From: an uncultured Gammaproteobacteria bacterium
GTDB lineage: Bacteria > Pseudomonadota > Gammaproteobacteria > SZUA-229
Reading direction: 5' to 3'
NCBI GenBank assembly: GCA_965368175.1
Contig: CBDULX010000002.1
Coordinates: forward strand, 1 to 46,442
Length of the DNA stretch: 46,442 bases
The translations under genes and the position numbers were made by a program. Each line of letters begins with the position of its first letter. The first letter of the stretch is position 1. This document shows positions 5,039 to 40,628 of this stretch, piece after piece. The notes under the pieces are model-generated. The model searched no databases and was not told the DNA's origin. It worked only from the letters and a program-made list of their open reading frames with translations.

Positions 5039-6085
5039 TTAAGGTAAATAGCCATCTGATAAGGTTTGCATGAATGTAACAATGGCATCTTCTTCAGCAC
5101 TGGTTAAACCCAGGTCGCCAAGAAACTGCCCATCCACTGTTTCTGGCACTTCAGGAGCTGGCCACATTCCCGGAATATCCCGTGTATTATAAAAATTTAC
5201 CACTTCCTTAAGCGTTTTCAGTACACCATTGTGCATATAGGGTGGTGTTAAGGCTACGTTCCTAAGATGCGTGGTTTTAAACTTACCATACTGGGCTGGA
5301 TCGTTAAGTACACCTCCAAGGCCCAAATCTCTAAAGTCTGCGGGCAGGTCAGGGCGTAGCACGAAAATTTCAGGATTGGCAGGCAGACCTAGATTATGGA
5401 ATTTAGCATCGGTGAAAATATCAGGATCTTTACCTGAACCCAGATCATGGCAATGGCTACATTTACCGGTTCCAGTGAATAGTTTAAGACCTCTTGCTTC
5501 AACGGCGGTAAAACTGGCTGTTCCTGCCTGTACGGCATCGTATTTGGAGCTGAATTTTTTAAAAGGTGTAGTGGTCTCAAATAGAGCAATAGCCTCCGCC
5601 ATGCAATTATAGGCAGCATCCACATTTAATGAAGGCCCACACAGGGCTTCAAAATCCGTCGCATAGGCTGTTGCCTGTATTTTTAGAATAACTGATGCCC
5701 TGTCCGGGTTATTCATCTCTACAGGGTTTAAGAACGGCCCTTTAGCCTGCTCGGTAAGGTTGGCTGCTCGACCATCCCAGAATTGACCACCCTTGATACC
5801 GCTTTTTAGAGTGAATTCAGGAAAGAACAGAGCATAGGAGGCGCTGGGTGAATTACGAGTGCCAAATCTGCCTGGAATCACACCTTCTGAAACGGGTAAA
5901 TTTTGATCTGGATCTGCAAAACCGAAAGCAGGATCATGGCAACTGGCACAGGACTGGCCGGCAGGTTCTGATAAAGATGCATCAAAAAATAGTTTTTCAC
6001 CTAATTGCGATTTTGTTAATGCTGCTGACGCTATAGATGAGAAGAATAAGCTGAGTATTAATCCAACTAGCGTAGACGGTTTCAT
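5039..6085 (-). CDS. di-haem cytochrome c peroxidase (CCP/MauG family), periplasmic
   Basis: 348 aa with a signal peptide (MKPSTLVGLILSLFFSSIASAA). Two CxxCH haem motifs (CASCH, CSHCH) and a conserved PPYMHNG block. Confidence 0.85.
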   Translation of the reverse strand: MKPSTLVGLILSLFFSSIASAALTKSQLGEKLFFDASLSEPAGQSCASCHDPAFGFADPDQNLPVSEGVIPGRFGTRNSPSASYALFFPEFTLKSGIKGGQFWDGRAANLTEQAKGPFLNPVEMNNPDRASVILKIQATAYATDFEALCGPSLNVDAAYNCMAEAIALFETTTPFKKFSSKYDAVQAGTASFTAVEARGLKLFTGTGKCSHCHDLGSGKDPDIFTDAKFHNLGLPANPEIFVLRPDLPADFRDLGLGGVLNDPAQYGKFKTTHLRNVALTPPYMHNGVLKTLKEVVNFYNTRDIPGMWPAPEVPETVDGQFLGDLGLTSAEEDAIVTFMQTLSDGYLP

Positions 6086-6393
6086 TTTTCATCTCCTAAT
6101 TAAATGGAGATTGATTATCTTCATTTGATGGCTTAATTGACAATGGGAATTTATACCCTTATGAAATGACGTGTGATGAAGTTAATTAAAATCAATCTAG
6201 AAAGAATTCAGGAATAATTCCTTTTTTACTTAATCATTATATGCTTGCGAACTATAGAATAGAAATTGAAAAGTGAAAGTAGAAACGCTAAGTTGAATGG
6301 CGGAGGCAGATTAGTGATTGTCATAAAATGATATGCAAGTTTATTCAGTGCTGGCATAAGTTTATATCAAGTTAAACAGCACCGGAGAAAAGA

Positions 6394-6612
6394 ATGAAGA
6401 ATGCCATACATTACTTTAATCAGAATTCCTCAGGCATGATTTTTTCCGGTCAAAAAGATGGCAGTGACGAATTGGGTATATTTTACACAGGTACACATCA
6501 TGAACTTGAGATGTTGCGCGAGTTGATTAATGAATCTATTGATTTACTGCGCAGCCGAAAAACCTATATGGGAATAGCTGAATATACGCATAATGTATAT
6601 TATGTTAAATAG
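6394..6612 (+). CDS. hypothetical small protein (72 aa)
   Basis: ATG preceded by GGAG at suitable spacing (ccGGAGaaaagaATG). No recognisable family. Confidence 0.4.
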   Translation: MKNAIHYFNQNSSGMIFSGQKDGSDELGIFYTGTHHELEMLRELINESIDLLRSRKTYMGIAEYTHNVYYVK

Positions 6613-6775
6613 TGGTCCTCCAGACTATTATTAGCTGTGCAGATATTCGAATGATACAGATGTGATCCCGTTCGCATTACTATCCCCTGTCTAGAGCTAA
6701 TATTTATCTATAGTCAATCGAAGCTATTAAATGATAACCCACTTATAAGTATCTGTTTTTTAATAGGTTATCTGC

Positions 6776-6973
6776 ATGTCACAAAGCAATATATCAGAGC
6801 CTGTAATGATCCCGGCTTATATGGGTAGAGATCACAGAGTATCCGATCTACCCAGGTCAGACAGTAGATATATTCTTGCATCATTCAATAACCTAAATGA
6901 ACTGTATGACTTATCGCTAGAGGCGATATTTGATAACCATGGTTGCGTGAGCGATCTAAGAGAGACTGGTTAA
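6776..6973 (+). CDS. hypothetical small protein (65 aa)
   Basis: ORF only. Weak ribosome-binding context and no recognisable family. Confidence 0.25.
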   Translation: MSQSNISEPVMIPAYMGRDHRVSDLPRSDSRYILASFNNLNELYDLSLEAIFDNHGCVSDLRETG

Positions 6974-6995
6974 TTAACTGTTTTAGGACACGACT

Positions 6996-7211
6996 ATGTT
7001 AAAATTCTTCAAACTCATCACCAGTGTGCTTGCTTTAGTTTTTCTAATAGCAATGATATATATAAGCCCTACTCTTACTACTACTCTAAGTTTTGTAGTT
7101 CTTTCATTACTGGTATTAGGAGTTATCGCATTGTTATCCGGCCATGATGATGAAAGTGACATAAATACTCATCCGTTTGATCCGACACAATCACAGTGTC
7201 ACTTAAAATAA
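6996..7211 (+). CDS. hypothetical small membrane protein (71 aa, two TM helices)
   Basis: Two clear hydrophobic helices (LITSVLALVFLIAMIYI; LSFVVLSLLVLGVIALL). AGGA upstream of the ATG, and a strong hairpin follows directly. Confidence 0.4.
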   Translation: MLKFFKLITSVLALVFLIAMIYISPTLTTTLSFVVLSLLVLGVIALLSGHDDESDINTHPFDPTQSQCHLK

Positions 7212-7240
7212 TAATGGGCCGTCATTGACGGCCCATTATT
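7210..7240. terminator. strong stem-loop (terminator-like) after the small ORF cluster
   Basis: 14-bp perfect stem AATAATGGGCCGTC / GACGGCCCATTATT with a 3-nt loop. There is no clean T-tract on the plus strand, so its function is uncertain. Confidence 0.5.
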
Positions 7241-8036
7241 ATTCACGCATTGCAACTATACCTGGCGTTTACTCCCAAGCTGTTTATTCTTCATTTTTTT
7301 ATACTGAATACATTAATTATTTAATCCCTGTTATTAATTTGGAAACTCTGATCAAGTCACGATTGTTTTATGCAGCCTAAATTCAACCAGACATGATGAG
7401 AAGTTCCTTAGTTTCAGTTACAGGAATTAAATCTCGTCTATATTTTTCTTTTAAATTCAGAAGCAATAAAAATCTTAATAAAACTAAATCCTGACCAACC
7501 AGATATTTGCAACATATAATTAGGGCTGTAACATAATTAGTTAAACAGATTATAACTAATTACTTATATCGCCAAGATGACTCTTGTACTTCTAAAGAAT
7601 GCTTCAAATATTTTTGTCAGTAATTTTCGCAAAAAAATATTTTAGATTTGTATTTTCCTTGATTTATTTCAAGGAACATTTATTATGCCCTTAGAATAAA
7701 TTGGTACTTTGATATTTGTCTAGTACCGCATAATATATGATTCGGTTTATAAACATATTCACGAATAATTATATTAATAATTTCTAATAAGAAAAGACCA
7801 TTATATTAATAAAGAGATGCGCATTACTAAAATTATTAAGCTAGTTCACTGTGACCAGGTCATATAAATGCAACTAGCGTCACTCACTGTATTTCATTAT
7901 TTAGGAGCATTGCTCTTCTATTCGATTGCGCATCTCAAAATAACTATCAGGCCATTTATTAAACAAAAATATTTAGTGTGTGCAGGTGTGTGAAAATTTA
8001 AAAAATAATTAAAAAACCACTTTCCGGAGGGTGTAT

Positions 8037-9149
8037 ATGAGTGCCGCAATAAGGTCTTCTGGCCTACTCTGTTTGATGCTAATAAGCAATCCATTATTTG
8101 CAGCTTATCAGCTAAATCTTAAACCTGGGGTATCACCATACAGTCAGGGAGCTTATGACATTCACCAGATGGTTATGTGGATATGTCTTGGTATTGGTAT
8201 AGTGGTCTTTGGCGCTATGTTTTATTCCATAATCAACCATCGAAAATCAAAACACGCTAAAGCATCCACATTTCACGAAAGTACAGCTATAGAAATTGCC
8301 TGGACTATCATTCCAATTCTTATACTTATCGCCATGGCGATTCCTGCTACTAAAGTCCTTCTGGCCATGGAAGACACCTCTAACTCCGACATGTCGATTA
8401 AAGTCACTGGTTATCAGTGGAAATGGCATTATGATTACCTCGAAGATGACATAAATTTTTTCAGTAATCTGTCAACCCCCAAAGAACAAATTCACAATCT
8501 GCAGGATAAAGGTGAGCATTATCTCCTTGAAGTAGATAATCGTGTTGTTATCCCTACTAATAAAAAAGTTCGTTTTCTGTTTACTGCCAACGACGTAATT
8601 CACTCATGGTGGGTGCCGGCATTTGGCCTGAAAAAAGATGCTATTCCAGGTTTTATTAACGAAGGCTGGACCAGTGTACCTGAACCCGGTGTTTATCGTG
8701 GACAGTGTGCAGAACTTTGCGGTGCTAACCATGGTTTTATGCCAATTGTTGTTGAGGCAAAATCTGAACAGGACTATCTCGCCTGGGTACAGGAAAAGAA
8801 ATCATCTATGGCAGCTGCGGCAGCCAGTGGCGACAGAACCTGGACTATGGATGAGCTGATGGCAAAAGGTCAGCAGGTATATACCACAGCCTGTGCAGCC
8901 TGCCATCAGATCAGCGGTGAAGGTTTAGCCAACGTGTTCCCTGGTATTAAAGGCAGTGCGATCGCATTAGGTGATATCGCCAAACATATCGATATAGTTG
9001 TAAATGGCAAAACAGGTACCGCCATGCAGGCCTTTGGCCAACAGTTGAATGACGCGGATCTTGCAGCGGTTATTACCTATGAACGAAACGCCTGGGGAAA
9101 TAATACCGGTGACATGGTACAGCCATCAGATATTAAATCGGCTAAATAA
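8037..9149 (+). CDS. coxB: cytochrome c oxidase subunit II with C-terminal mono-haem cytochrome c domain
   Basis: CuA motif HSWWVPAFG...[13 protein letters not shown]-terminal CAACH haem site. GGAGG at 8026-8030 favours ATG 8037 over the track's GTG 8031. Confidence 0.95.
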
Positions 9150-30954: not shown

Positions 30955-32277
30955 TTACAGCTGACCACTCACTTTCATATCCAGGTATATGTTGGTTAAT
31001 GCCAATGGCAATTGATGTGGAAGAACATCCAGGGTGTGAATCTTGTGATGACCGAGCAGTTTGATCAGCTTACTTCGGCTTTCAAGATAACCATGGGCTG
31101 CAGATATGGCTAATGCATCTTTTAATTCATTCACCGGTTGATCAAGTATCCTGTGTACCGACGCTTCCTGCAAACTGGCTACCACGACATTGTGTCTCTT
31201 TTTTAACATCTGAACGGCCAGTTGCAGGTCATCGGTATCATCATCACGTAAATTACTAAGTATGATGACTACAGCGCGTTTTCGATGATTAGCTAATACA
31301 AAATTAGCCCCCTTTATATAGTCGGGTGCCTGAGTGCCTGGCTGAAGATCATAAATCCCATTAAGCAAGCTGTTTATTTTACCTGCACCCTTTACCGGTT
31401 TGATCCAGCGAGGAGCATCATGACTGAAGGTCGCAATACCCACGGCATCTCCCTGACGCAGAGCAACATAGCTCATCAGTAACACTGAATTTAGAATATA
31501 ATCAAAATGACTGAGTTCACCGTCTTTTGATAACATCCGATGACCACAGTCCATCAGAAAAATAATTTCCTGATCACGTTCATCCTGATATTCACGGGCA
31601 ATTAATTTCCGCATTCTGGATGACGTTTTCCAGTCTATCTGCTTCAGGTTGTCCCCTTCTCTGAATTCCCGCATCTGGTGGAAATCCATGCCCTGGCCGC
31701 GTCGTCTTTGCTTGAGTATGCCCATGGAAGAAACTCGGTTTTCAGTTGCAAGCAGTGCATATTCAAGGATCGGTCTGTAATCGGGATAGACGCGTAATTC
31801 AGTTTCAGATCCACAGGTAAATCGGCGACTCCACAAACCCAGTCTGCTCAAGAGCAAACAACTCGTTTTAGCAAAAGACACAGTACCTCTTTGTATGGGT
31901 CTAATTTTATATTCAGTAATATAGTGCGGGTGTTCAATGTCAAGTTTGAGCTTTTTTGGTAGACCGTTAAATTGACATTGTTCAGGAATGTGGTCAAACA
32001 GTGCCAGATTATAACTATGCTTATTACAATGCTTTAGCTCGAGTTTTACGCTATGCCAGTTACCAACTGGCATAGCGCTGGGTAGTATTCGGGTTATTTC
32101 GGGTTTAGTGAATGCAAACAGTAAGTAAATGTCATAAATAGATAGCGCAATGACCATACCTGAAAACATGAGCCAGATTATCAGAAATATTTCACTCAAC
32201 GGCGTTAACAACGAAATAACAAGTAAAATTATCGCCGCATAAAGCATATTGATTGCAGGTTTAACTGGCAGAATCAT
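30955..32277 (-). CDS. DUF58 (vWA-like) protein with two N-terminal TM helices, MoxR partner
   Basis: DUF58 signature DFHQMREFREGDNLKQIDWKTSSR. 4-nt overlap with the MoxR stop. Confidence 0.85.
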   Translation of the reverse strand: MILPVKPAINMLYAAIILLVISLLTPLSEIFLIIWLMFSGMVIALSIYDIYLLFAFTKPEITRILPSAMPVGNWHSVKLELKHCNKHSYNLALFDHIPEQCQFNGLPKKLKLDIEHPHYITEYKIRPIQRGTVSFAKTSCLLLSRLGLWSRRFTCGSETELRVYPDYRPILEYALLATENRVSSMGILKQRRRGQGMDFHQMREFREGDNLKQIDWKTSSRMRKLIAREYQDERDQEIIFLMDCGHRMLSKDGELSHFDYILNSVLLMSYVALRQGDAVGIATFSHDAPRWIKPVKGAGKINSLLNGIYDLQPGTQAPDYIKGANFVLANHRKRAVVIILSNLRDDDTDDLQLAVQMLKKRHNVVVASLQEASVHRILDQPVNELKDALAISAAHGYLESRSKLIKLLGHHKIHTLDVLPHQLPLALTNIYLDMKVSGQL

Positions 32278-33251
32278 TGCCTCGGTGCTTCTACCTTTTC
32301 CAGTATGGTATTGATCACCTGATCTTCATTTAAACCATCCAGTTCAAGCTCAGGAGACAGACTAATTCTATGTCTCAAAACTGATTTAGCAACATATTTG
32401 ATATCGTCGGGTATAACAAAAGTCCGCCCGTTTATTAATGCATATGCTCTGGCACATCTAATAAGTGCAATGCCACCTCGCGGACCACTGCCAATTGAAA
32501 TGCCTGGCCAGATACGGGTTTGCCTGACTATTGATATGGCATATTGGGTTACAGCATCATCAACAGTAATGGTTGTGGCAAAAGCCTGCAATTTTGTTAT
32601 TATTTCCGGATTTGATGTTGACACTATAGAGCCTAAATCAAATTTATCACCAACCTGGTTATGGGTAACCTTTTTAACCATTTCTAATTCGTGATCAAGC
32701 AAAGGATAATCGATTTTTATTTTTATCAGAAACCGGTCTAACTGTGCTTCTGGCAGTGGATAAGTTCCTTCTTGCTCAATTGGGTTTTGAGTGGCCAGCA
32801 CCATAAATGGCTGTGGAACAGCTAAGGGCTTTCCCTCAAGAGTAACTTGCTGCTCCTGCATTACTTCTAATAATGCAGACTGTGATTTGGCTGGCGCACG
32901 ATTGATTTCATCTGCCAGTAATAAATTAGTGAACACAGGTCCCTTTCGGATTCGAAACTTGTTTAATTCATTATCGAACATGACGTGACCTGTTATGTCG
33001 CTGGGCATAAGATCAGGCGTGAACTGTACACGAGAGAATTCACCAGAGAAACTGTTTGCCAGGGCTCGAACTAATAAGGTTTTACCCAAACCAGGCACAC
33101 CTTCGATTAACACGTGCCCTGCAGAAAGAAAAGCTATTAACACATCATTCACTACATTATGCTGACCAATGAATACTGAATTTATCTGGTCTCTTATGGA
33201 ATCAATTAGCTGAGTATATTTAATTAATTCCAGATTAGTATCGTTATTCAT
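32274..33251 (-). CDS. MoxR-family AAA+ ATPase
   Basis: 325 aa. Walker A GVPGLGKT, Walker B LLADEINRA, and ATQNPIEQEGTYPLPEAQLDRF. Confidence 0.95.
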   Translation of the reverse strand: MNNDTNLELIKYTQLIDSIRDQINSVFIGQHNVVNDVLIAFLSAGHVLIEGVPGLGKTLLVRALANSFSGEFSRVQFTPDLMPSDITGHVMFDNELNKFRIRKGPVFTNLLLADEINRAPAKSQSALLEVMQEQQVTLEGKPLAVPQPFMVLATQNPIEQEGTYPLPEAQLDRFLIKIKIDYPLLDHELEMVKKVTHNQVGDKFDLGSIVSTSNPEIITKLQAFATTITVDDAVTQYAISIVRQTRIWPGISIGSGPRGGIALIRCARAYALINGRTFVIPDDIKYVAKSVLRHRISLSPELELDGLNEDQVINTILEKVEAPRQ

Positions 33252-34393
33252 ATAGCTTTCCTGATATTTTCAAGCAATTTTATTTTCTGTAAAAAACTTT
33301 CCTGAGAAGTTATATTTTTATCAAACAGTGCATCATATAAATTATGATTAGAGTGCGGAATTAAGTCCTGCAATGTATCGACCAGGTACTGCCTGTCTTT
33401 CAAGCCAAGTCCAGGATATTTCAGATAAATCATCTGTAATATTGATTTTTGGGAGAATACGGTTAATCTGGAATAATCTTTTTTTCGCCAGTAGTAATTT
33501 CCAGAAGCCAGAATATGGTCCTTAAAACTGAGGCGATCAGGAACATCAACATTGATGACAGGCCCGAATCTTGGTATTACATGCCAGATGAATAGCACAA
33601 TAAATACTAAAACAGTATATACAAAAACAGGTGCTTTAGTATATATCCAGCTTAACAGCGTTTCTCGGGTTTCAAACAGCGAATAATAGACATCACCAGT
33701 AGTCTGCTTGTCATTTACCAGTCCCCAGATAAATGCAGCATTATCATATTTAGATATTTCAGTGTTATGCAATATCGACATATCACTTAAAACAATCACC
33801 CTGCCCTGGCCATGTGAAATAGCAACAGCATTAATAGTCGAGTCATTTTTGACTGACCATATAATGTCATTCTGGTTATTATCTAATATCTTTAATGTAT
33901 AATACTGTTTAAAGCCCACTAGAAGAAACTCTATATTTTCATTTATATTGACATTAATCGGAGTATCATCAAATTGATCTTCATCTATATATTGATAAAT
34001 ACCAGAAATGCCTAAAGAATCCAGCAGGTAATCATGGGTTCGGTCATCATCTTCAACATAAGAACGAGCCGTTATTATTAAATAGCCTCCTGAACTCACC
34101 CACTCCATTAACAGTTTGCTTTTTTCCTGACCCATAGAAACACGATGACCTGTCATAATGAGAGTATCGTTTTTATTGAGCATATCAACAGATTCTCTAT
34201 AGATATCTATTCTCTGTGTACTCTGACCCATTGCCTTTAAAAAATATTCGGCCGCAAGGAAATTATTAATCCTTGCCTCACCTTTATACCCAACTTCAAC
34301 ATCTTGCTCAAAAAACTCAATATAGTTACCGAGCCAATATATCAATCCAGCTATTATTGATGCTATAACTATTATCCATAATATTGTCTTCAT
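33248..34393 (-). CDS. DUF4350-like membrane protein (TM helices at both ends of a soluble domain)
   Basis: 381 aa with an N-terminal TM helix and a TM helix near residue 250. The LIMTGHRVSMGQEKSKLLMEWVSSGGYLIITA block resembles DUF4350/GldG-like domains. 4-nt overlaps on both sides. Confidence 0.6.
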   Translation of the reverse strand: MKTILWIIVIASIIAGLIYWLGNYIEFFEQDVEVGYKGEARINNFLAAEYFLKAMGQSTQRIDIYRESVDMLNKNDTLIMTGHRVSMGQEKSKLLMEWVSSGGYLIITARSYVEDDDRTHDYLLDSLGISGIYQYIDEDQFDDTPINVNINENIEFLLVGFKQYYTLKILDNNQNDIIWSVKNDSTINAVAISHGQGRVIVLSDMSILHNTEISKYDNAAFIWGLVNDKQTTGDVYYSLFETRETLLSWIYTKAPVFVYTVLVFIVLFIWHVIPRFGPVINVDVPDRLSFKDHILASGNYYWRKKDYSRLTVFSQKSILQMIYLKYPGLGLKDRQYLVDTLQDLIPHSNHNLYDALFDKNITSQESFLQKIKLLENIRKAI

Positions 34394-35133
34394 TGAGGCA
34401 CACCATTACCAAAGTGATCGTCCCATTTGCTGCACAATTGATTAAATTCATCCTGGTCTGGCTTTACATGCCCATATGCCATTCTAATCCAGTGATCTGC
34501 TATAAGTTTGAAATAAGATGCCAGATCATGATTAACAGAATGATTCACGACATTAATGCATTCGTGCTCAGTTAAGGCTTTTGTTATAGTAATTTTATTA
34601 TTGGTGAATATTTTTATAAGAGAAGCCCTGAACAACAAACTTAGCGCATCTCTTTCCTCACCACCTTGCCATGAACGCATAGCTGATTCTATGATATTAT
34701 CGGGTAATGTTTCAGGGTTTAATTCCATTCCAGGCAAAATATCAGGAATGATGGCATGTTTTTCTTTATTAGAACGAATCAGATAACTAATCCAGTATTT
34801 TCTATAGTAAATAACAAAAAGCAATAGAATTACAGGGGCTGACCAAAGTAAATATTCGACTCCACGAGCAATGAATAGCAGTAATTTCCCCCATAGTTCA
34901 TTCGGCTCATCAATATTTTCTTCTTCTGGATCAAATTTAAATCGCCAGTCCATCCTGTTCTCAGAAGTTTTAAATGCTTCCATGGACATAACTGATTCAA
35001 TGACCTGTCTGGATTGATCAATATCAAGTCGTGTTTTATTAACAGTGACTGTATCGGATAACGTATCCGCAGTAACCGATGTGGCAATAAAAATCAGGAT
35101 AAATATTGATATCAAGTGCTTAATTAATAACAT
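34390..35133 (-). CDS. DUF4129-like membrane protein
   Basis: 247 aa with a signal/anchor, a central TM helix (LLLFIARGVEYLLWSAPVILLLFVIYY) and a C-terminal helical domain. Position upstream of DUF4350-MoxR-DUF58 is as in related operons. Confidence 0.55.
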   Translation of the reverse strand: MLLIKHLISIFILIFIATSVTADTLSDTVTVNKTRLDIDQSRQVIESVMSMEAFKTSENRMDWRFKFDPEEENIDEPNELWGKLLLFIARGVEYLLWSAPVILLLFVIYYRKYWISYLIRSNKEKHAIIPDILPGMELNPETLPDNIIESAMRSWQGGEERDALSLLFRASLIKIFTNNKITITKALTEHECINVVNHSVNHDLASYFKLIADHWIRMAYGHVKPDQDEFNQLCSKWDDHFGNGVPQ

Positions 35134-35905
35134 TATGAAATTGTTTTTCTAATCTATTATTTATTTGCTTGAAAACTAGCTCTATATCCCACGCCTCCAG
35201 TTTGACCCTTCTATTTAAGTAGAGCAAAAATCCGGCACTTAAATATAGAGGCTCAATTAAAAACACCGTCAAAGCATAAATTAATGTATTAAATATAAGC
35301 CCTGCCGTAGTTTCATCAGCACTCTCAAAAAAGCTCCATAAAGTGGAATAAAGTTCATCTGGAATAAAAAACGCTATGAGCATATATATAGACATATTTA
35401 TTAATAATTCGTAGTTAAGTGCCATTATAGTGAGCCCAACTGCATAACCACTGGTATCTTTCTGTAATATCTTCAGTCGCTTTTTCCGCATTCCTCCTGT
35501 CAGGCCTTCCAGATTATGTACTGGCATGCTAAAAGACCGCACAGGAGATAGTCGCCACCAGTAAATGCTGTGTTTGAGTCCTGGCTTCAACCAGACAAAT
35601 AGATTTTTAAATACATCGTTTGGACTTAGTTTTTCTGAAAATAACTCATTACTCAATATAAACAATAATAAACTGTCATAAACCGGCTTAAATAACCAGA
35701 ACAGAAATAATCCGGTCCATGGATAACCTGAAGCCTGAATATATACTGACATTGTAGTGAATATAATCAGTATACTAACCCATGGAATGATTATTTTCTT
35801 TGTTAGGCTTATAACAAGTCGAGTACCCAGGTCCATTGCCTCCCATGGCGTCCTCTCTCGAAGATTTATAATTAACCTGTCAAGTCTCATCGCCACGTCC
35901 AGCAT
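35120..35905 (-). CDS. hypothetical polytopic membrane protein
   Basis: 261 aa, about 6 hydrophobic helices, no family recognised. Overlaps both neighbours (14 nt and 26 nt). Confidence 0.6.
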   Translation of the reverse strand: MLDVAMRLDRLIINLRERTPWEAMDLGTRLVISLTKKIIIPWVSILIIFTTMSVYIQASGYPWTGLFLFWLFKPVYDSLLLFILSNELFSEKLSPNDVFKNLFVWLKPGLKHSIYWWRLSPVRSFSMPVHNLEGLTGGMRKKRLKILQKDTSGYAVGLTIMALNYELLINMSIYMLIAFFIPDELYSTLWSFFESADETTAGLIFNTLIYALTVFLIEPLYLSAGFLLYLNRRVKLEAWDIELVFKQINNRLEKQFHNVIN

Positions 35906-36857
35906 AAATGAAATATATAATTATAAGTATCCATAGAATGCCACCAACCGTATATTTAATTATTGAATCAATCTCTGTCATAGATGACCAGTATGCTTCA
36001 ATAAAAGCAGCAATAATGAACATTATTATAACGCCGTACATAAGATATATAGTTGCTTTTGCGTTATCTCTAAGAGATTTAAGCCTGGTTTTTCGGCCCG
36101 GGCTAATAATTGAATAGCCAAGCCTCATGCCTGCTGAGCCTGAGATTACGATAGCAAGCAGTTCAAATGAGCTGTGGCCCGATACAAATGGCCAGAAAGT
36201 ATCAATATATCCAATATGCGTTAAGTGTCCTGCGATTGCTCCAATATATAGGCCATTAAAAATTAGTGTGATAAATGCACCCACAGTAAATATCAAACCA
36301 CTGGCATATGTTCTTAAACCTATACTTGTATTGTTAAATATATAAAATCCAAACATTTGAAAATCCGTATCTGATTCCCTGTCACGGCCAATCTTATCAA
36401 GACCTGGTTCATACATGGATTCAATACTGGATAATTGATAGCCATCAACTATTTTAAGAGCAATATCGGGCTGCAATTGAACTGATAAAAATACCAGTAT
36501 CAAAGAACCGAAGAATATAAGAGAAGATACCAAAAACCATCTTTTGTCCTTCCTGATAGCCTGCGGAAAACCATTCGAAAAATAATAAATAATCTCCCTG
36601 ATAAAGCTTGTTTTTCGTTTATAAAACTCCTGATGGAATAGCATAACCAGTCTTTCGAGTTTACTCACCAAAGAAGGACTGTAATGTCTTGCACGTGATA
36701 TGGACAAATGATGACAAAGGTTTCGGTAAATTTGAGTTACATCCTGTTCTTTATTATTTATAGTTATTATTTTTCCATTAGAATTCGTCGTTTCAAGAAA
36801 GAGTTCTATCTGATCCCAGTATTCTTTATACCTTTTTTCGAAATTACTCTGCTTCAT
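35880..36857 (-). CDS. SpoIIM-like (DUF95) membrane protein with soluble N-terminal domain
   Basis: 325 aa. A ~100-aa helical N-domain, then ~6 TM helices. GHSSFELLAIVISGSAG and AAFIEAYWS blocks are typical of DUF95. Confidence 0.6.
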   Translation of the reverse strand: MKQSNFEKRYKEYWDQIELFLETTNSNGKIITINNKEQDVTQIYRNLCHHLSISRARHYSPSLVSKLERLVMLFHQEFYKRKTSFIREIIYYFSNGFPQAIRKDKRWFLVSSLIFFGSLILVFLSVQLQPDIALKIVDGYQLSSIESMYEPGLDKIGRDRESDTDFQMFGFYIFNNTSIGLRTYASGLIFTVGAFITLIFNGLYIGAIAGHLTHIGYIDTFWPFVSGHSSFELLAIVISGSAGMRLGYSIISPGRKTRLKSLRDNAKATIYLMYGVIIMFIIAAFIEAYWSSMTEIDSIIKYTVGGILWILIIIYFIYAGRGDET

Positions 36858-37543
36858 TCTCGACCCAGTATGTAATTTGCAGCAGCAAGCAGCTGGTCTG
36901 ATCTGTTTGTATTCTCATCTGATTTTATATTGGACATATATGACGCAAGCTCTGCCTGTCGCTCTTCAGACAGGCTCGAGCATCGTTCTGCGTACTTTAG
37001 TATGTAGTGTTGTTCATGCAGATCCAGCTCTACTGGAAATGACTGTGGTATATAATAAGGAATTTTCTGAAGTGAATCTTTTTTAGGTTCATAGATAACT
37101 ATTGTATTCGCAGCCAGGTCGCCAATTCTTTGAAAATTTCTGGTTAATAAAATAGAGATCAATCCAGTAGCATACATGACAGGTAAAAAATCTACTGTCC
37201 GTAGAATATTACGAAGTAAAGACTCTGACCAGCCTATATTTGTAGCATCTGCATTTACAACTCTAATATTAAGCAGCATTTTTCCAGGGGTCTGACCGTT
37301 ATATTTTATTTCAAAAAACACAGGATAGAACCATTCGAGTACAAAAACGCCTATAAGTAGCAATCCATATCCAAGTACATCCATGAAGCTGGTAATTGAT
37401 ATTAATAGTATGTAAATAAGAAGTCGTATAAGCAGATCAAACATCCACGCATAGCTTCTGGACCAGATACCCGCAAGCCGCTGTTCTATTTCTATTCCCT
37501 CAGGTGTAATTACTGTTAAGATATTATCTAGTTTACTATTCAT
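36854..37543 (-). CDS. RDD-family membrane protein
   Basis: 229 aa. RDD pattern (R...AWMFDLLI, GQTPGKMLLNIRVV, RIGDLAANTIV) plus a ~90-aa cytoplasmic tail. Confidence 0.7.
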   Translation of the reverse strand: MNSKLDNILTVITPEGIEIEQRLAGIWSRSYAWMFDLLIRLLIYILLISITSFMDVLGYGLLLIGVFVLEWFYPVFFEIKYNGQTPGKMLLNIRVVNADATNIGWSESLLRNILRTVDFLPVMYATGLISILLTRNFQRIGDLAANTIVIYEPKKDSLQKIPYYIPQSFPVELDLHEQHYILKYAERCSSLSEERQAELASYMSNIKSDENTNRSDQLLAAANYILGRE

Positions 37544-37597: not shown

Positions 37598-38209
37598 TTA
37601 TTTAACTACCCAGGAACCTTCTACAACCAACGTTTCTTTTTCGAAGATCTTCCCCAGATACCTGTCGCCAGAATTTACCGAGCCTACGCCTTTAGGTGTA
37701 CCGGTCATTAATAAATCACCGTCCTCAAATGAAAGAAAACTTCTGGCTTCGTTTAACATCTGGCTCGGCTTGTTCAACATCAAATCATAACAAGCAAACT
37801 GAACCAGTGCGTCATTAATATATAATTCCATTCTCAATTCAGTGATATTGCCTTTAAAAGTGACAAAATCACTGAATACCGCAGAGTGATCAAAGGCTTT
37901 TGCACGTTCCCATGGCCACCCCCTGCCCATTAATTTATATTGAAGATCTCGCTTGGTGAGATCCAGCCCGAAGCCGACAGCTCTGAGTTCACCGGAACTA
38001 ATCAGGAAGGTTATTTCGCCCTCAAAATGAATAAGCTCGGTTTTACTGGAATGGATTTCATTTGAGATAGCTGAATTTGGTTTCATGAAAATAACAGGCT
38101 CTTGTGAAGCCTCGTTATCGAACTCCTTGATATGATCAGCATAATTTCTACCGATACACACAATCTTAGATGGATAAACCGCTTTACCGTCCCATGTAAT
38201 AGATTTCAT
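37598..38209 (-). CDS. fumarylacetoacetate hydrolase (FAH) family protein
   Basis: 203 aa. Contains KIVCIGRNYADHIKE, GDLLMTGTPKGVG, and an acidic-metal-ligand pattern of FAH/YcgM-like enzymes. Confidence 0.85.
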   Translation of the reverse strand: MKSITWDGKAVYPSKIVCIGRNYADHIKEFDNEASQEPVIFMKPNSAISNEIHSSKTELIHFEGEITFLISSGELRAVGFGLDLTKRDLQYKLMGRGWPWERAKAFDHSAVFSDFVTFKGNITELRMELYINDALVQFACYDLMLNKPSQMLNEARSFLSFEDGDLLMTGTPKGVGSVNSGDRYLGKIFEKETLVVEGSWVVK

Positions 38210-38900
38210 TATTGCTCACTTTCCTGGAACTACGACCAGTGAAATATAACATCTGCTAAAGGAATTATTACCCCATCAGCCCTGGATGATTCCCCTGAAT
38301 TGTGCAATTTTCCATACATAAGCGACTAGACAGGCTATCTACACGCTGCAAATGAAATAACAAAAATCTAAAATAATTCCTTATTATTGACATTTGAGGA
38401 AAGAATAGAAACCAAAAATAGCACGAGAATTTCCTACACCTCAAAGCTTCTTAATTACTATATTGATAAACTTACACCAACTTTCTGAGTTATTATTGTT
38501 TTTTATCATAATATCAATATCATACACATTATTTATAAAGTATATTCTAGATAAAGTTATTATATATTCAGGGAATATCCCCCATTTTATAAAGCAATTC
38601 CTGCACTTATACTGCTAAATCTATGTTATTTATAATTATTTTATTGGAAGCAGGCAGAATACCATTCGCTGGCATACGTGATCAAACTCACATTAATCCG
38701 TGGCGTGTATCTCTATCATTATAAGTGATAGTCACAGGCCGGCAGCGCAGGTTCAGCCCGAAATGTAAAAAAAGCATCCGCAGTAACTCTGCCTAGAGAT
38801 GCAATCCCCCACACCAAGGCAGGTATTACAACTGATTAAAGTTCTCGTGAGAATGCGTGTTTTTATAAACATGGTATCCAATAACCAGCAGGATTGAGTC

Positions 38901-40409
38901 ATGACTGCAGAAATTCATACTTTAGATACAGTAAATAGACACAAATTAGAGCTCGAACAATGCCAAATTAGTTCAGACAGTACCGATCAATCAGACCAGA
39001 CCAATGTTCAGGACTCAGAACATATATCAAAAGTTATCAAGGACTTCATTACCAACAAAGCAGACCAGGCCCAGAGCAAACCATCTTCTCGTAATAACTT
39101 TTTCAACAGACAGGATGTCATTAAAGCGCTAACAGGTATCCAGCTGAGTTATAAACCTGAGTATATTCCAGGGCAGAAAGTCAATATCAACACCGATGGT
39201 TTCAAATACGCCCTGTTGAACGGTATGGCCAAGCTTAATAACTCTGCCGTACCTCGCGCAATGAATCAGATTGATGGACGCACCATAGATTTTGTTGAAA
39301 TGATCTTTGGCGCATTCTTGAGGGACAAAAATGTTTCAGATGCCATCAAGTCATTATTACTGACCTTGCAGATTCCAGTAGTCAAAACTTCCCTGCTCGA
39401 TAATAACTTTTTTTATGATATGAAACATCCTGCTCGTCATGTACTTGATACCGTTGCACATATTGGAATAGGGATTGAAGACAGCAACGATACTGTCTAT
39501 AAGACTATGGAACTGATCATTGAGCAATTATTACGTAGCTTTGATCAAAACATTGTTAGCTTTCGAACTGCACTCGCCTCACTAAAACGTTTGACTGATA
39601 TCGAGCAAAAGAAACAGCAGCAGAATGAACAGCAAACAAAACAACAGATACTACAGGAACATGCACGACAAATCGTATTAACAGAACTCCAGTTCCACAC
39701 TTTGAGCACTAAAATACCTAAGCCAGTACAACCATTAATACTTAATCACTGGTCAACCATGATGTTCCATCGCTATATTAGATTCGGAAAGAATAGCGAA
39801 CAATGGAATGAAGCGACAGACTTACTCAATCTGATGATTCAGACCTTAAAGCCATTAAACTGTAAAGAGGAGTGGCTTTCATTACAAAATATTCATTTGA
39901 GTATTGTATATACAATTAAAGTAATACTTGACGAAACCCGACAAAATAAAGAAAAGGTTTTCATGGCGGTAAATAATCTTAAGAACACTTATATTAAGAT
40001 TTTAACCGAATCTGAATATTTTGAGGAGACAGCTCCACCTGAAAACACACATACTACTCTTGATTCAATTCCGGGGTCTGATGCAGATAAGTCCCCAACA
40101 CCGCTGGATATAAAAATTGAATCCTCAAAACAAAAAATCGAAAAATTACCACAACACGTAAAACCTGGCACCTGGTTTGAAATATTTACGGGTGTAGATC
40201 ATCCCGTCCGTCGCTTAAAACTTTCGGTGATAGTCCAGGAAAATGCACGACTGGTATTTGTTGACCGTCTGGGTATAAAAGTACTGGAAAAGGATGCGGA
40301 AGAATTTACCCATGAACTGGAAACTGATAAATCCCGTCTGCTTGATGACCATTCAGTGTTTGATCATGCACTTAGCCAGGTGATTAACTCAATTTCCGCT
40401 TCCAGATAA
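38901..40409 (+). CDS. DUF1631-family protein
   Basis: 502 aa. Core block FVEMIFGAFLRDKNVSDAIKSLLLTLQIPVVKTSLLDNNFFYDMKHPARHVLD and C-terminal PGTWFEIF...RRLKLSVIVQENARLVFVDRLGIKV match the DUF1631 pattern. Confidence 0.75.
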   Translation: MTAEIHTLDTVNRHKLELEQCQISSDSTDQSDQTNVQDSEHISKVIKDFITNKADQAQSKPSSRNNFFNRQDVIKALTGIQLSYKPEYIPGQKVNINTDGFKYALLNGMAKLNNSAVPRAMNQIDGRTIDFVEMIFGAFLRDKNVSDAIKSLLLTLQIPVVKTSLLDNNFFYDMKHPARHVLDTVAHIGIGIEDSNDTVYKTMELIIEQLLRSFDQNIVSFRTALASLKRLTDIEQKKQQQNEQQTKQQILQEHARQIVLTELQFHTLSTKIPKPVQPLILNHWSTMMFHRYIRFGKNSEQWNEATDLLNLMIQTLKPLNCKEEWLSLQNIHLSIVYTIKVILDETRQNKEKVFMAVNNLKNTYIKILTESEYFEETAPPENTHTTLDSIPGSDADKSPTPLDIKIESSKQKIEKLPQHVKPGTWFEIFTGVDHPVRRLKLSVIVQENARLVFVDRLGIKVLEKDAEEFTHELETDKSRLLDDHSVFDHALSQVINSISASR

Positions 40410-40470: not shown

Positions 40471-40547
40471 TGGCGGACCGGACGGGATTTGAACCCGCGA
40501 CCTCCGGCGTGACAGGCCGGCATTCTAACCAGCTGAACTACCGGTCC
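40471..40547 (-). tRNA. tRNA-Asp (anticodon GTC)
   Basis: Reverse complement GGACCGGTAGTTCAGCTGGTTAGAATGCCGGCCTGTCACGCCGGAGGTCGCGGGTTCAAATCCCGTCCGGTCCGCCA. It folds as a cloverleaf with anticodon loop CTGTCAC and an encoded CCA. Confidence 0.95.
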
Positions 40548-40552
40548 GAGAT

Positions 40553-40628
40553 TGGTGGGTGATGAGAGATTTGAACTCCCGACATTCGCCTTGTAAGGGC
40601 GACGCTCTACCAGCTGAGCTAATCACCC
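40553..40628 (-). tRNA. tRNA-Val (anticodon TAC)
   Basis: Reverse complement GGGTGATTAGCTCAGCTGGTAGAGCGTCGCCCTTACAAGGCGAATGTCGGGAGTTCAAATCTCTCATCACCCACCA. Anticodon loop CTTACAA, encoded CCA. Confidence 0.95.

Follow-up and report, generated by a model that had tools for sequence, protein, structure and literature searches.

An Arc2-type operon with a split arc2D gene in an uncultured marine-type gammaproteobacterium

The window analysed here is a stretch of 46,442 nt from an uncultured gammaproteobacterium, and all coordinates refer to it. Its minus strand carries, at 37543..30955, seven consecutive genes that code for an RDD protein, a SpoIIM-like protein, a four-helix membrane protein, a DUF4129 protein, a DUF4350 protein, a MoxR-type AAA+ ATPase, and a DUF58 protein. 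The identity of this block as the conserved core arc2B-G of an Arc2-type cluster is well supported by homology and gene order. By this comparison the operon is an already-named system, Arc2, here with a split arc2D and without arc2A, and not an orphan architecture. Its products probably form a MoxR/DUF58-driven inner-membrane complex of the Arc2 type that counters pore-forming toxins.

In Pseudomonas aeruginosa, the genes PA4317-23 were named arc2A-G, for "antagonism resistance cluster 2", and were shown by transposon-insertion sequencing (Tn-seq) and in-frame deletions to protect the cell against attack by the type VI secretion system (T6SS) of Burkholderia thailandensis (Ting et al. 2022, eLife, PMC8926400). 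The role is defensive and not offensive, as the mutant kills its competitor as before, and the protection is partly specific to the pore-forming toxin ColA. The cluster is induced by Gac/Rsm from a very low basal expression, and its mutants are normal under the general stresses tested, including the absence of an osmotic defect in 3 M NaCl (PMC8926400). The authors noted a MoxR-like ATPase and a VWF-domain protein among the products, none of which was characterised. In their Tn-seq source data, which compare a wild-type with a T6SS-deficient competitor, PA4318-23 have ratios of 8.9, 16.1, 17.4, 6.9, 12.1, and 20.5, respectively, and PA4317 is not listed among the hits; in the ColA screen, PA4319, PA4320, PA4322, and PA4323 score 3.2-5.3, all above threefold (PMC8926400). 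The six Tn-seq hits are exactly the six gene equivalents present in the window. A preliminary description of this DNA, made from its letters, held that no phenotype was known for the seven-gene architecture; the arc2 study, a functional study of this very type of operon, overturns that claim. Literature searches found no follow-up mechanistic work on Arc2.

One of the loci related to the operon (L003) adjoins mvaT, sbcB, and purU, neighbours that we took to point to PA4314-PA4323 of P. aeruginosa. On a P. aeruginosa contig (L005), purU, mvaT, and sbcB are followed by a 245-aa protein without Pfam match and then, in this order, by RDD, DUF8413+SpoIIM, a 523-aa DUF4129 protein, DUF4350, MoxR, and DUF58. 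The published deletion primers (PMC8926400) have exact matches on this contig, which settles the PA numbering: what the PA4323 deletion removes lies within the DUF58 gene, and what the PA4320 deletion removes lies within the 523-aa gene. PA4318 is thus the RDD protein, PA4319 the SpoIIM-like protein, PA4320 Arc2D, PA4321 the DUF4350 protein, PA4322 MoxR, and PA4323 the DUF58 protein. All seven products of the operon align with these proteins (Table 1), so that the two clusters share six homologous components in the same order, at 25-58% identity, with short overlapping junctions in both. The window differs from P. aeruginosa in lacking arc2A and in having arc2D as two overlapping genes. Its host is also an uncultured marine-type gammaproteobacterium and not a pseudomonad; the relatives of its SecD come from metagenome-assembled Gammaproteobacteria and from marine, vent, or symbiont sequences. 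A tblastn search for PA4317 across the whole window found no counterpart. Because a homologue of PA4317 occurs in only 15 of the 85 related loci and the gene is absent among the Tn-seq hits, arc2A looks accessory to the cluster and not defining.

Table 1. Genes of the Arc2-type operon in transcription order, with their P. aeruginosa counterparts (BLASTP)
Product	Coordinates	Strand	Counterpart	Identity	E-value
RDD-family membrane protein, 229 aa	36854..37543	-	PA4318 / Arc2B	40% over 223 aa	2e-50
SpoIIM-like polytopic protein, 325 aa	35880..36857	-	PA4319 / Arc2C	41% over 323 aa	7e-94
Four-helix membrane protein, 261 aa (probably 256 aa)	35120..35905	-	PA4320 / Arc2D, N-terminal half (residues 1-249)	34%	2e-40
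DUF4129 protein, 247 aa	34390..35133	-	PA4320 / Arc2D, C-terminal half (residues 279-521)	26%	2e-24
DUF4350 protein, 381 aa	33248..34393	-	PA4321 / Arc2E	25% over 407 aa	2e-31
MoxR-type AAA+ ATPase, 325 aa	32274..33251	-	PA4322 / Arc2F	58%	2e-143
DUF58 / vWA-like protein, 440 aa	30955..32277	-	PA4323 / Arc2G	43% over 384 aa	1e-111

The seven open reading frames (ORFs), taken from an ORF table with translations, overlap at every junction, by 4, 26, 14, 4, 4, and 4 nt in transcription order as called. Four junctions have the stop/start overlap ATGA, among them the 4-nt overlap between the stop of the RDD gene and the start of the SpoIIM-like gene. The second overlap is probably shorter than called: homologues of the third protein begin with MRLD, and its database copy (P0001) has 256 aa as against 261 aa called, hence the true start is probably the ATG at 35890, which would leave an overlap with the SpoIIM-like gene of 11 nt, not 26. 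Both features, the overlaps and the order of the genes, are found again in P. aeruginosa and in all related loci that are long enough; they are therefore not due to chance, and they support the reading, already made in the preliminary description with exactly these overlaps, of the seven genes as one tightly coupled operon. A scan for promoters and terminators returned signals at or below shuffle expectation and no minus-strand terminator inside the operon, so a single transcript is not contradicted.

The block had also been described as rich in A+T. Its genes have a GC content of 0.34-0.42 (mean GC 0.373; mean GC at third codon positions, GC3, 0.331), which is indeed lower than that of the nearby queA, tgt, and secDF (0.45-0.50), but it is no outlier, as it differs from the mean of the window's other 29 genes by less than one standard deviation (GC 0.412 ± 0.047; GC3 0.380 ± 0.072). 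It is the queA/tgt/secDF neighbours that are GC-rich, and the operon is ordinary. The composition gives no sign of a recent horizontal transfer, and a transfer argued on these grounds was rejected.

The operon is unusual in its third and fourth genes. The third protein matches no family in Pfam or NCBIfam, in agreement with the earlier remark that no family could be recognised for it, but it is no separate novelty, being the N-terminal half of a PA4320-type DUF4129 protein. A word-based search found 39 homologues, none with a Pfam domain. A profile (A1) was then built from 20 of these homologues and searched against 1.84 billion cluster representatives; it found 2577 of them, mostly of about 500 aa, of which the first 250 residues align, and the long proteins of the family have a C-terminal DUF4129 domain according to Pfam. 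The fourth protein aligns in turn to residues 302-524 of one such homologue (P0045; E = 7e-31). Its own match to DUF4129 (PF13559) has E = 0.0018 and 18.8 bits, below the cut-off of 24.8 bits, whereas fused full-length homologues reach up to 40.9 bits. By the Pfam score the earlier DUF4129 call falls short; the alignment just given is to the DUF4129-containing half of the fused homologues.

Of 80 related loci, 78 encode the two halves, Arc2D-N and Arc2D-C, in a single reading frame, and 2 have them split. The split is kept in relatives of the window lineage (71% and 46% identity) and in one other lineage (L086, L087, and L002). By this comparison, the two genes are a lineage-specific fission of an arc2D of about 520 aa, which is genuine, and not an error, because it is conserved in relatives. 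The opposite arrangement is also found: one protein of 943 aa (P0149) holds the Arc2D-N module, DUF4129, and DUF4350 in a single polypeptide. Such fusions of Arc2D-N with DUF4129, and in this case with DUF4350, are Rosetta-stone evidence and argue that the three work as one physical unit.

The AlphaFold2 model of Arc2D-N (pLDDT 81) is all-helical, with four transmembrane (TM) helices, and a Foldseek search of it against the Protein Data Bank (PDB) gave no match at E <= 0.001. In the model and topology scan, a helical insert of about 65 residues on the cytoplasmic side separates TM2 from TM3. Many charged residues are invariant in the family, which also has two conserved elements: an N-terminal motif, R-x-R-x-P-W-E-A-x-D-L-G, and a juxtamembrane C-terminal helix, Y-L-N-R-R-x-x-L-E-A-W-D-I-E. 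Arc2D-C (model pLDDT 77) is predicted to have an N-terminal anchor, then an acidic stretch of about 63 aa in the periplasm, a single TM helix, and, on the cytoplasmic side, the helical DUF4129 domain. The modelled domain (residues 140-245) has a weak likeness to HEPN four-helix bundles (2hsb; E = 0.11, TMt 0.54). A reading of it as a HEPN nuclease was rejected: the R217-x4-H222 of the window is not conserved, and homologues in Pseudomonas have Q at the position of R.

Some PA4320-type proteins (P0200, P0206, P0244, and P0257) are named "Protein-glutamine gamma-glutamyltransferase" in UniRef. Because Pfam finds only DUF4129 in PA4320-type proteins and no transglutaminase core, this name has probably been over-propagated. 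TgpA of Pseudomonas presumably also has a C-terminal DUF4129 and is, we assume, encoded beside MoxR and DUF58 genes; TgpA-type proteins share the UniRef name with several PA4320 homologues, which by Pfam have DUF4129 without the transglutaminase core.

Among the other components, the assignments first made from the sequence alone are confirmed by Pfam for RDD (PF06271, E = 2e-20), SpoIIM (PF01944, E = 1e-33), DUF4350 (PF14258, E = 2e-13), MoxR (AAA_3, E = 6e-64, and AAA_lid_2, E = 4e-22), and DUF58 (PF01882, E = 1e-24, 87.2 bits for a cut-off of 23.4; also VWA_2, E = 2e-7). NCBIfam has no specific family for any of the membrane components. The SpoIIM match covers residues 112-291 and is preceded by a soluble N-terminal region of about 104 aa; the homologues have a precomputed match to PF28475 (DUF8413) as well. 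By a scan of hydropathy and charge, each of the five upstream products contains membrane segments and the DUF58 protein has two helices at its N-terminus, in line with the preliminary description. The DUF4350 protein is predicted to have an N-terminal TM helix, an acidic periplasmic domain of about 223 aa, a second TM helix, and a basic cytoplasmic tail of 99 aa; its DUF4350 domain would be the only sizeable periplasmic domain of the operon. Makarova et al. (2015, PMC5898192) found the DUF4350 domain to be GldG-like using HHpred.

The motifs singled out earlier, GVPGLGKT and LLADEINRA in MoxR and DFHQMREFREGDNLKQIDWKTSSR in the DUF58 protein, are present and all fall in columns conserved across 73-74 homologues. 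In MoxR, Walker A (GVPGLGKT) and Walker B (LLLADEINRA) are intact and conserved in 74 homologues, and the nearest solved structure is 2R44 (E = 1e-79). A PDB sequence search found no relative for the DUF58 or the DUF4350 protein. In the DUF58 protein, the two-helix membrane hairpin is followed by about 380 basic residues, hence the vWA-like domain should be cytoplasmic. At the position expected for the metal ion-dependent adhesion site (MIDAS), an equivalence drawn at the sequence level from the VWA_2 match that starts at residue 238, this domain has D243-C-G-H-R247 and not DxSxS. At least 90% of 73 homologues share the variant DCGxRM in place of this canonical pattern.

The spread of the cluster was sampled by a scan with the A1 profile over species-representative genomes, from which the best 80 of at least 569 loci, mostly from Pseudomonas, were kept; this is a sample of the spread and not a measure of it. 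The best 80 loci come from many Pseudomonas species, Thiothrix/Thiotrichaceae, Chromatiaceae, Competibacteraceae, Sulfuriferula, Accumulibacter, and, among Xanthomonadales, from Stenotrophomonas, Dokdonella, Tahibacter, and Lysobacteraceae. In the 85 loci examined, the order RDD-SpoIIM-Arc2D-DUF4350-MoxR-DUF58 is kept on one strand wherever the contig is long enough, and the genes that flank the cluster differ between loci.

Three kinds of related systems can be compared with the operon. In mycobacteria, the same families adjoin each other: Rv3689 (membrane protein), Rv3691 (DUF4350), Rv3692 (moxR2), Rv3693 (DUF58), Rv3694c (SpoIIM), and Rv3695 (RDD), and the orthologues of Rv3689-Rv3695 in Mycobacterium chelonae are co-regulated (annotation table of PMC8191103). 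The likeness to the window is one of annotation, and Rv3694c shows that not all of these genes are on one strand. Literature searches found no functional study of Rv3689-95. In archaea, the membrane-anchored DUF4350 protein arCOG01314 has a vWA gene and a gene for a MoxR ATPase of COG0714 in its neighbourhood (PMC5898192); where the window has RDD, SpoIIM, and Arc2D, the archaeal system has Ig-domain and S-layer-like proteins, and its function is a prediction only. The third kind are the MRP-type MoxR-DUF58(-vWA) operons, of which the Bacteroides Bat operon is an example. These contain extra vWA and TPR proteins and lack RDD, SpoIIM, Arc2D, and DUF4350, whereas the vWA-like domain of the window has DCGxRM at the MIDAS position. 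What they share with the window is a MoxR gene directly followed by a DUF58 gene, as in the mycobacterial moxR1-Rv1480-Rv1481 (review PMC12067865).

From homology, topology, and the published P. aeruginosa phenotype we infer the following mechanism. RDD, the SpoIIM-like protein, Arc2D (here two polypeptides), and DUF4350 would form a single inner-membrane assembly, to which a cytoplasmic MoxR hexamer would dock via the membrane-anchored DUF58/vWA-like adaptor. MoxR would spend ATP to assemble, activate, or remodel this complex, which would limit or repair the damage done to the inner membrane by inserted pore-forming proteins. Most of the machine would face the cytoplasm, where nearly all strongly conserved motifs are predicted to lie, and the periplasm would receive only the DUF4350 domain and the short acidic segment of the DUF4129 protein. 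The preliminary description had proposed an envelope-located AAA+ machine for remodelling or surveillance, a plausible idea that is compatible with the published phenotype.

Several points weigh against this reading. The experimental support comes from P. aeruginosa and not from the host of the window: induction by Gac/Rsm and protection against T6SS and ColA are known for P. aeruginosa only, where the specificity for ColA is partial and for which the paper proposes no mechanism (PMC8926400). At 25-58% identity to the Pseudomonas proteins, function could have diverged. The window lacks arc2A, though this gene was no Tn-seq hit. Since the vWA-like domain is devoid of the canonical MIDAS serines, the usual model of metal-mediated vWA binding may not apply to it. 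Finally, the same families occur in mycobacteria, where T6SS attack is no obvious selective force, which suggests a more general membrane role.

Four other explanations were weighed, and none is better supported than a defence system of the Arc2 type. The operon might encode regulated cation or proton transport, in which the RDD protein transports and the other proteins gate or assemble it, so as to maintain ion balance and proton-motive force. One report (PMC5996927) describes a Na+(Li+,K+)/H+ antiporter of the RDD family from Halobacillus andaensis; activity of this kind could at the same time account for the protection against a pore-forming toxin, and it would suit the invariant charges of Arc2D-N. 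However, the RDD family is broad, and a finding on one antiporter cannot be carried over to this subfamily; in Tn-seq, other arc2 genes are hit more strongly than the RDD gene (8.9, versus 16-20 for PA4319, PA4320, and PA4323); and arc2 mutants have no osmotic defect in 3 M NaCl (PMC8926400). This explanation is thus unlikely.

It is improbable that the cluster is a secretion or surface-assembly apparatus, in which the GldG-like DUF4350 protein, MoxR, and the vWA protein export or assemble envelope proteins. This would extend to bacteria what was predicted for the archaeal DUF4350 operons with MoxR and vWA genes, namely a complex for secretion or for the remodelling of membranes (Makarova et al. 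2015, PMC5898192). In the bacterial cluster, however, nothing qualifies as cargo or as an outer-membrane component, S-layer and Ig-domain genes are absent, and most of the conserved sequence is predicted to be cytoplasmic. Moreover, the defect of the P. aeruginosa Arc2 mutant is defensive, with the killing of competitors unaffected (PMC8926400).

A housekeeping role in envelope growth or division, in which the divisome or wall remodelling would involve the SpoIIM-like and RDD proteins and the T6SS phenotype would be indirect, has very little probability in our view. The Arc2C counterpart belongs to the SpoIIM family, which includes a membrane component of the engulfment machinery of Bacillus. 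In Mycobacterium tuberculosis, where the same families cluster (Rv3689-Rv3695), Rv3694c (SpoIIM) and Rv3695 (RDD) were recovered together with Rv0954, a divisome protein (PMC8093794), but the list of proteins co-immunoprecipitated with Rv0954 is long and consists of membrane proteins in general. The very low basal expression in P. aeruginosa and the fact that mutants are normal under the general stresses tested also speak against such a role, as does the absence of any peptidoglycan enzyme in or beside the cluster at the loci examined. An anti-phage system built on a MoxR-vWA module can hardly be entertained: one paper proposes that MoxR-vWA ternary systems are conflict systems (PMC7159879) and MoxR has a secondary Pfam match to PF20030 (bpMoxR, E = 8.5e-11), but PADLOC finds nothing for six of the proteins and only marginal AAA-level matches for MoxR, the cluster has no effector-like domain, and it occurs in ordinary chromosomal contexts with a composition that is not atypical.

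As to the surroundings of the operon, the relative L086, whose Arc2D-N is 71% identical to that of the window, matches the window in its downstream genes (queA, an aminotransferase gene, and tgt) and, upstream, in the DUF1631 gene. The interval from DUF1631 to RDD differs: in L086 (2454-5220) it contains a 402-aa ORF, a DUF5677 gene, and a 208-aa gene of the phage-integrase family, and in the window (compared over 37598-38900) an FAA-hydrolase gene. The operon seems to be bordered upstream by a variable site. The DUF4350 and MoxR genes of L086 are called in pieces. The DUF1631 protein of the window (502 aa, 38901-40409, plus strand) covers only positions 274-740 of the 741 of the Pfam model and has about 690 nt of non-coding DNA upstream. 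As L086 carries the same 502-aa form, this short form seems normal for the lineage. Further along, tRNA-Asp(GTC) and tRNA-Val(TAC) adjoin each other at 40471-40628 on the minus strand and are the sole Rfam and ARAGORN matches in the window. Elsewhere, a region of about 1.9 kb (6086-8030) with a GC content of 0.30-0.35 has no ORF longer than 72 aa; its neighbours are, on the minus strand, a di-haem cytochrome-c-peroxidase-like gene (5039-6085) and, on the plus strand, a gene resembling that of cytochrome oxidase subunit II (8031-9149).

Only three pathways of innate resistance to T6SS attack between bacteria have been described, and Arc2 is among them. The comparison made here indicates that its conserved unit is the six genes PA4318-23 and not seven, that Arc2D has two modules, which can occur as separate chains or be joined to DUF4350 as well, that the DUF58 partner has a conserved non-canonical MIDAS position, and that Arc2-type systems reach well past the two families of the original paper, into uncultured marine Gammaproteobacteria. 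These four points do not amount to a new kind of system, but they narrow the design of biochemical and structural work on Arc2. Gammaproteobacteria and Betaproteobacteria have the core, and in mycobacteria the same families cluster. One may speculate, with only a small chance of being right, that the six-gene core is an ancient and broadly distributed "anti-pore" or membrane-repair machine, in which MoxR, docked by a MIDAS-less DUF58 protein, would supply the power by which a complex of Arc2D, DUF4350, SpoIIM, and RDD extracts foreign pore-forming proteins, takes them apart, or keeps them out. If this were true, Arc2 would represent a new class of AAA+-driven membrane immunity and not a Pseudomonas-specific accessory pathway.

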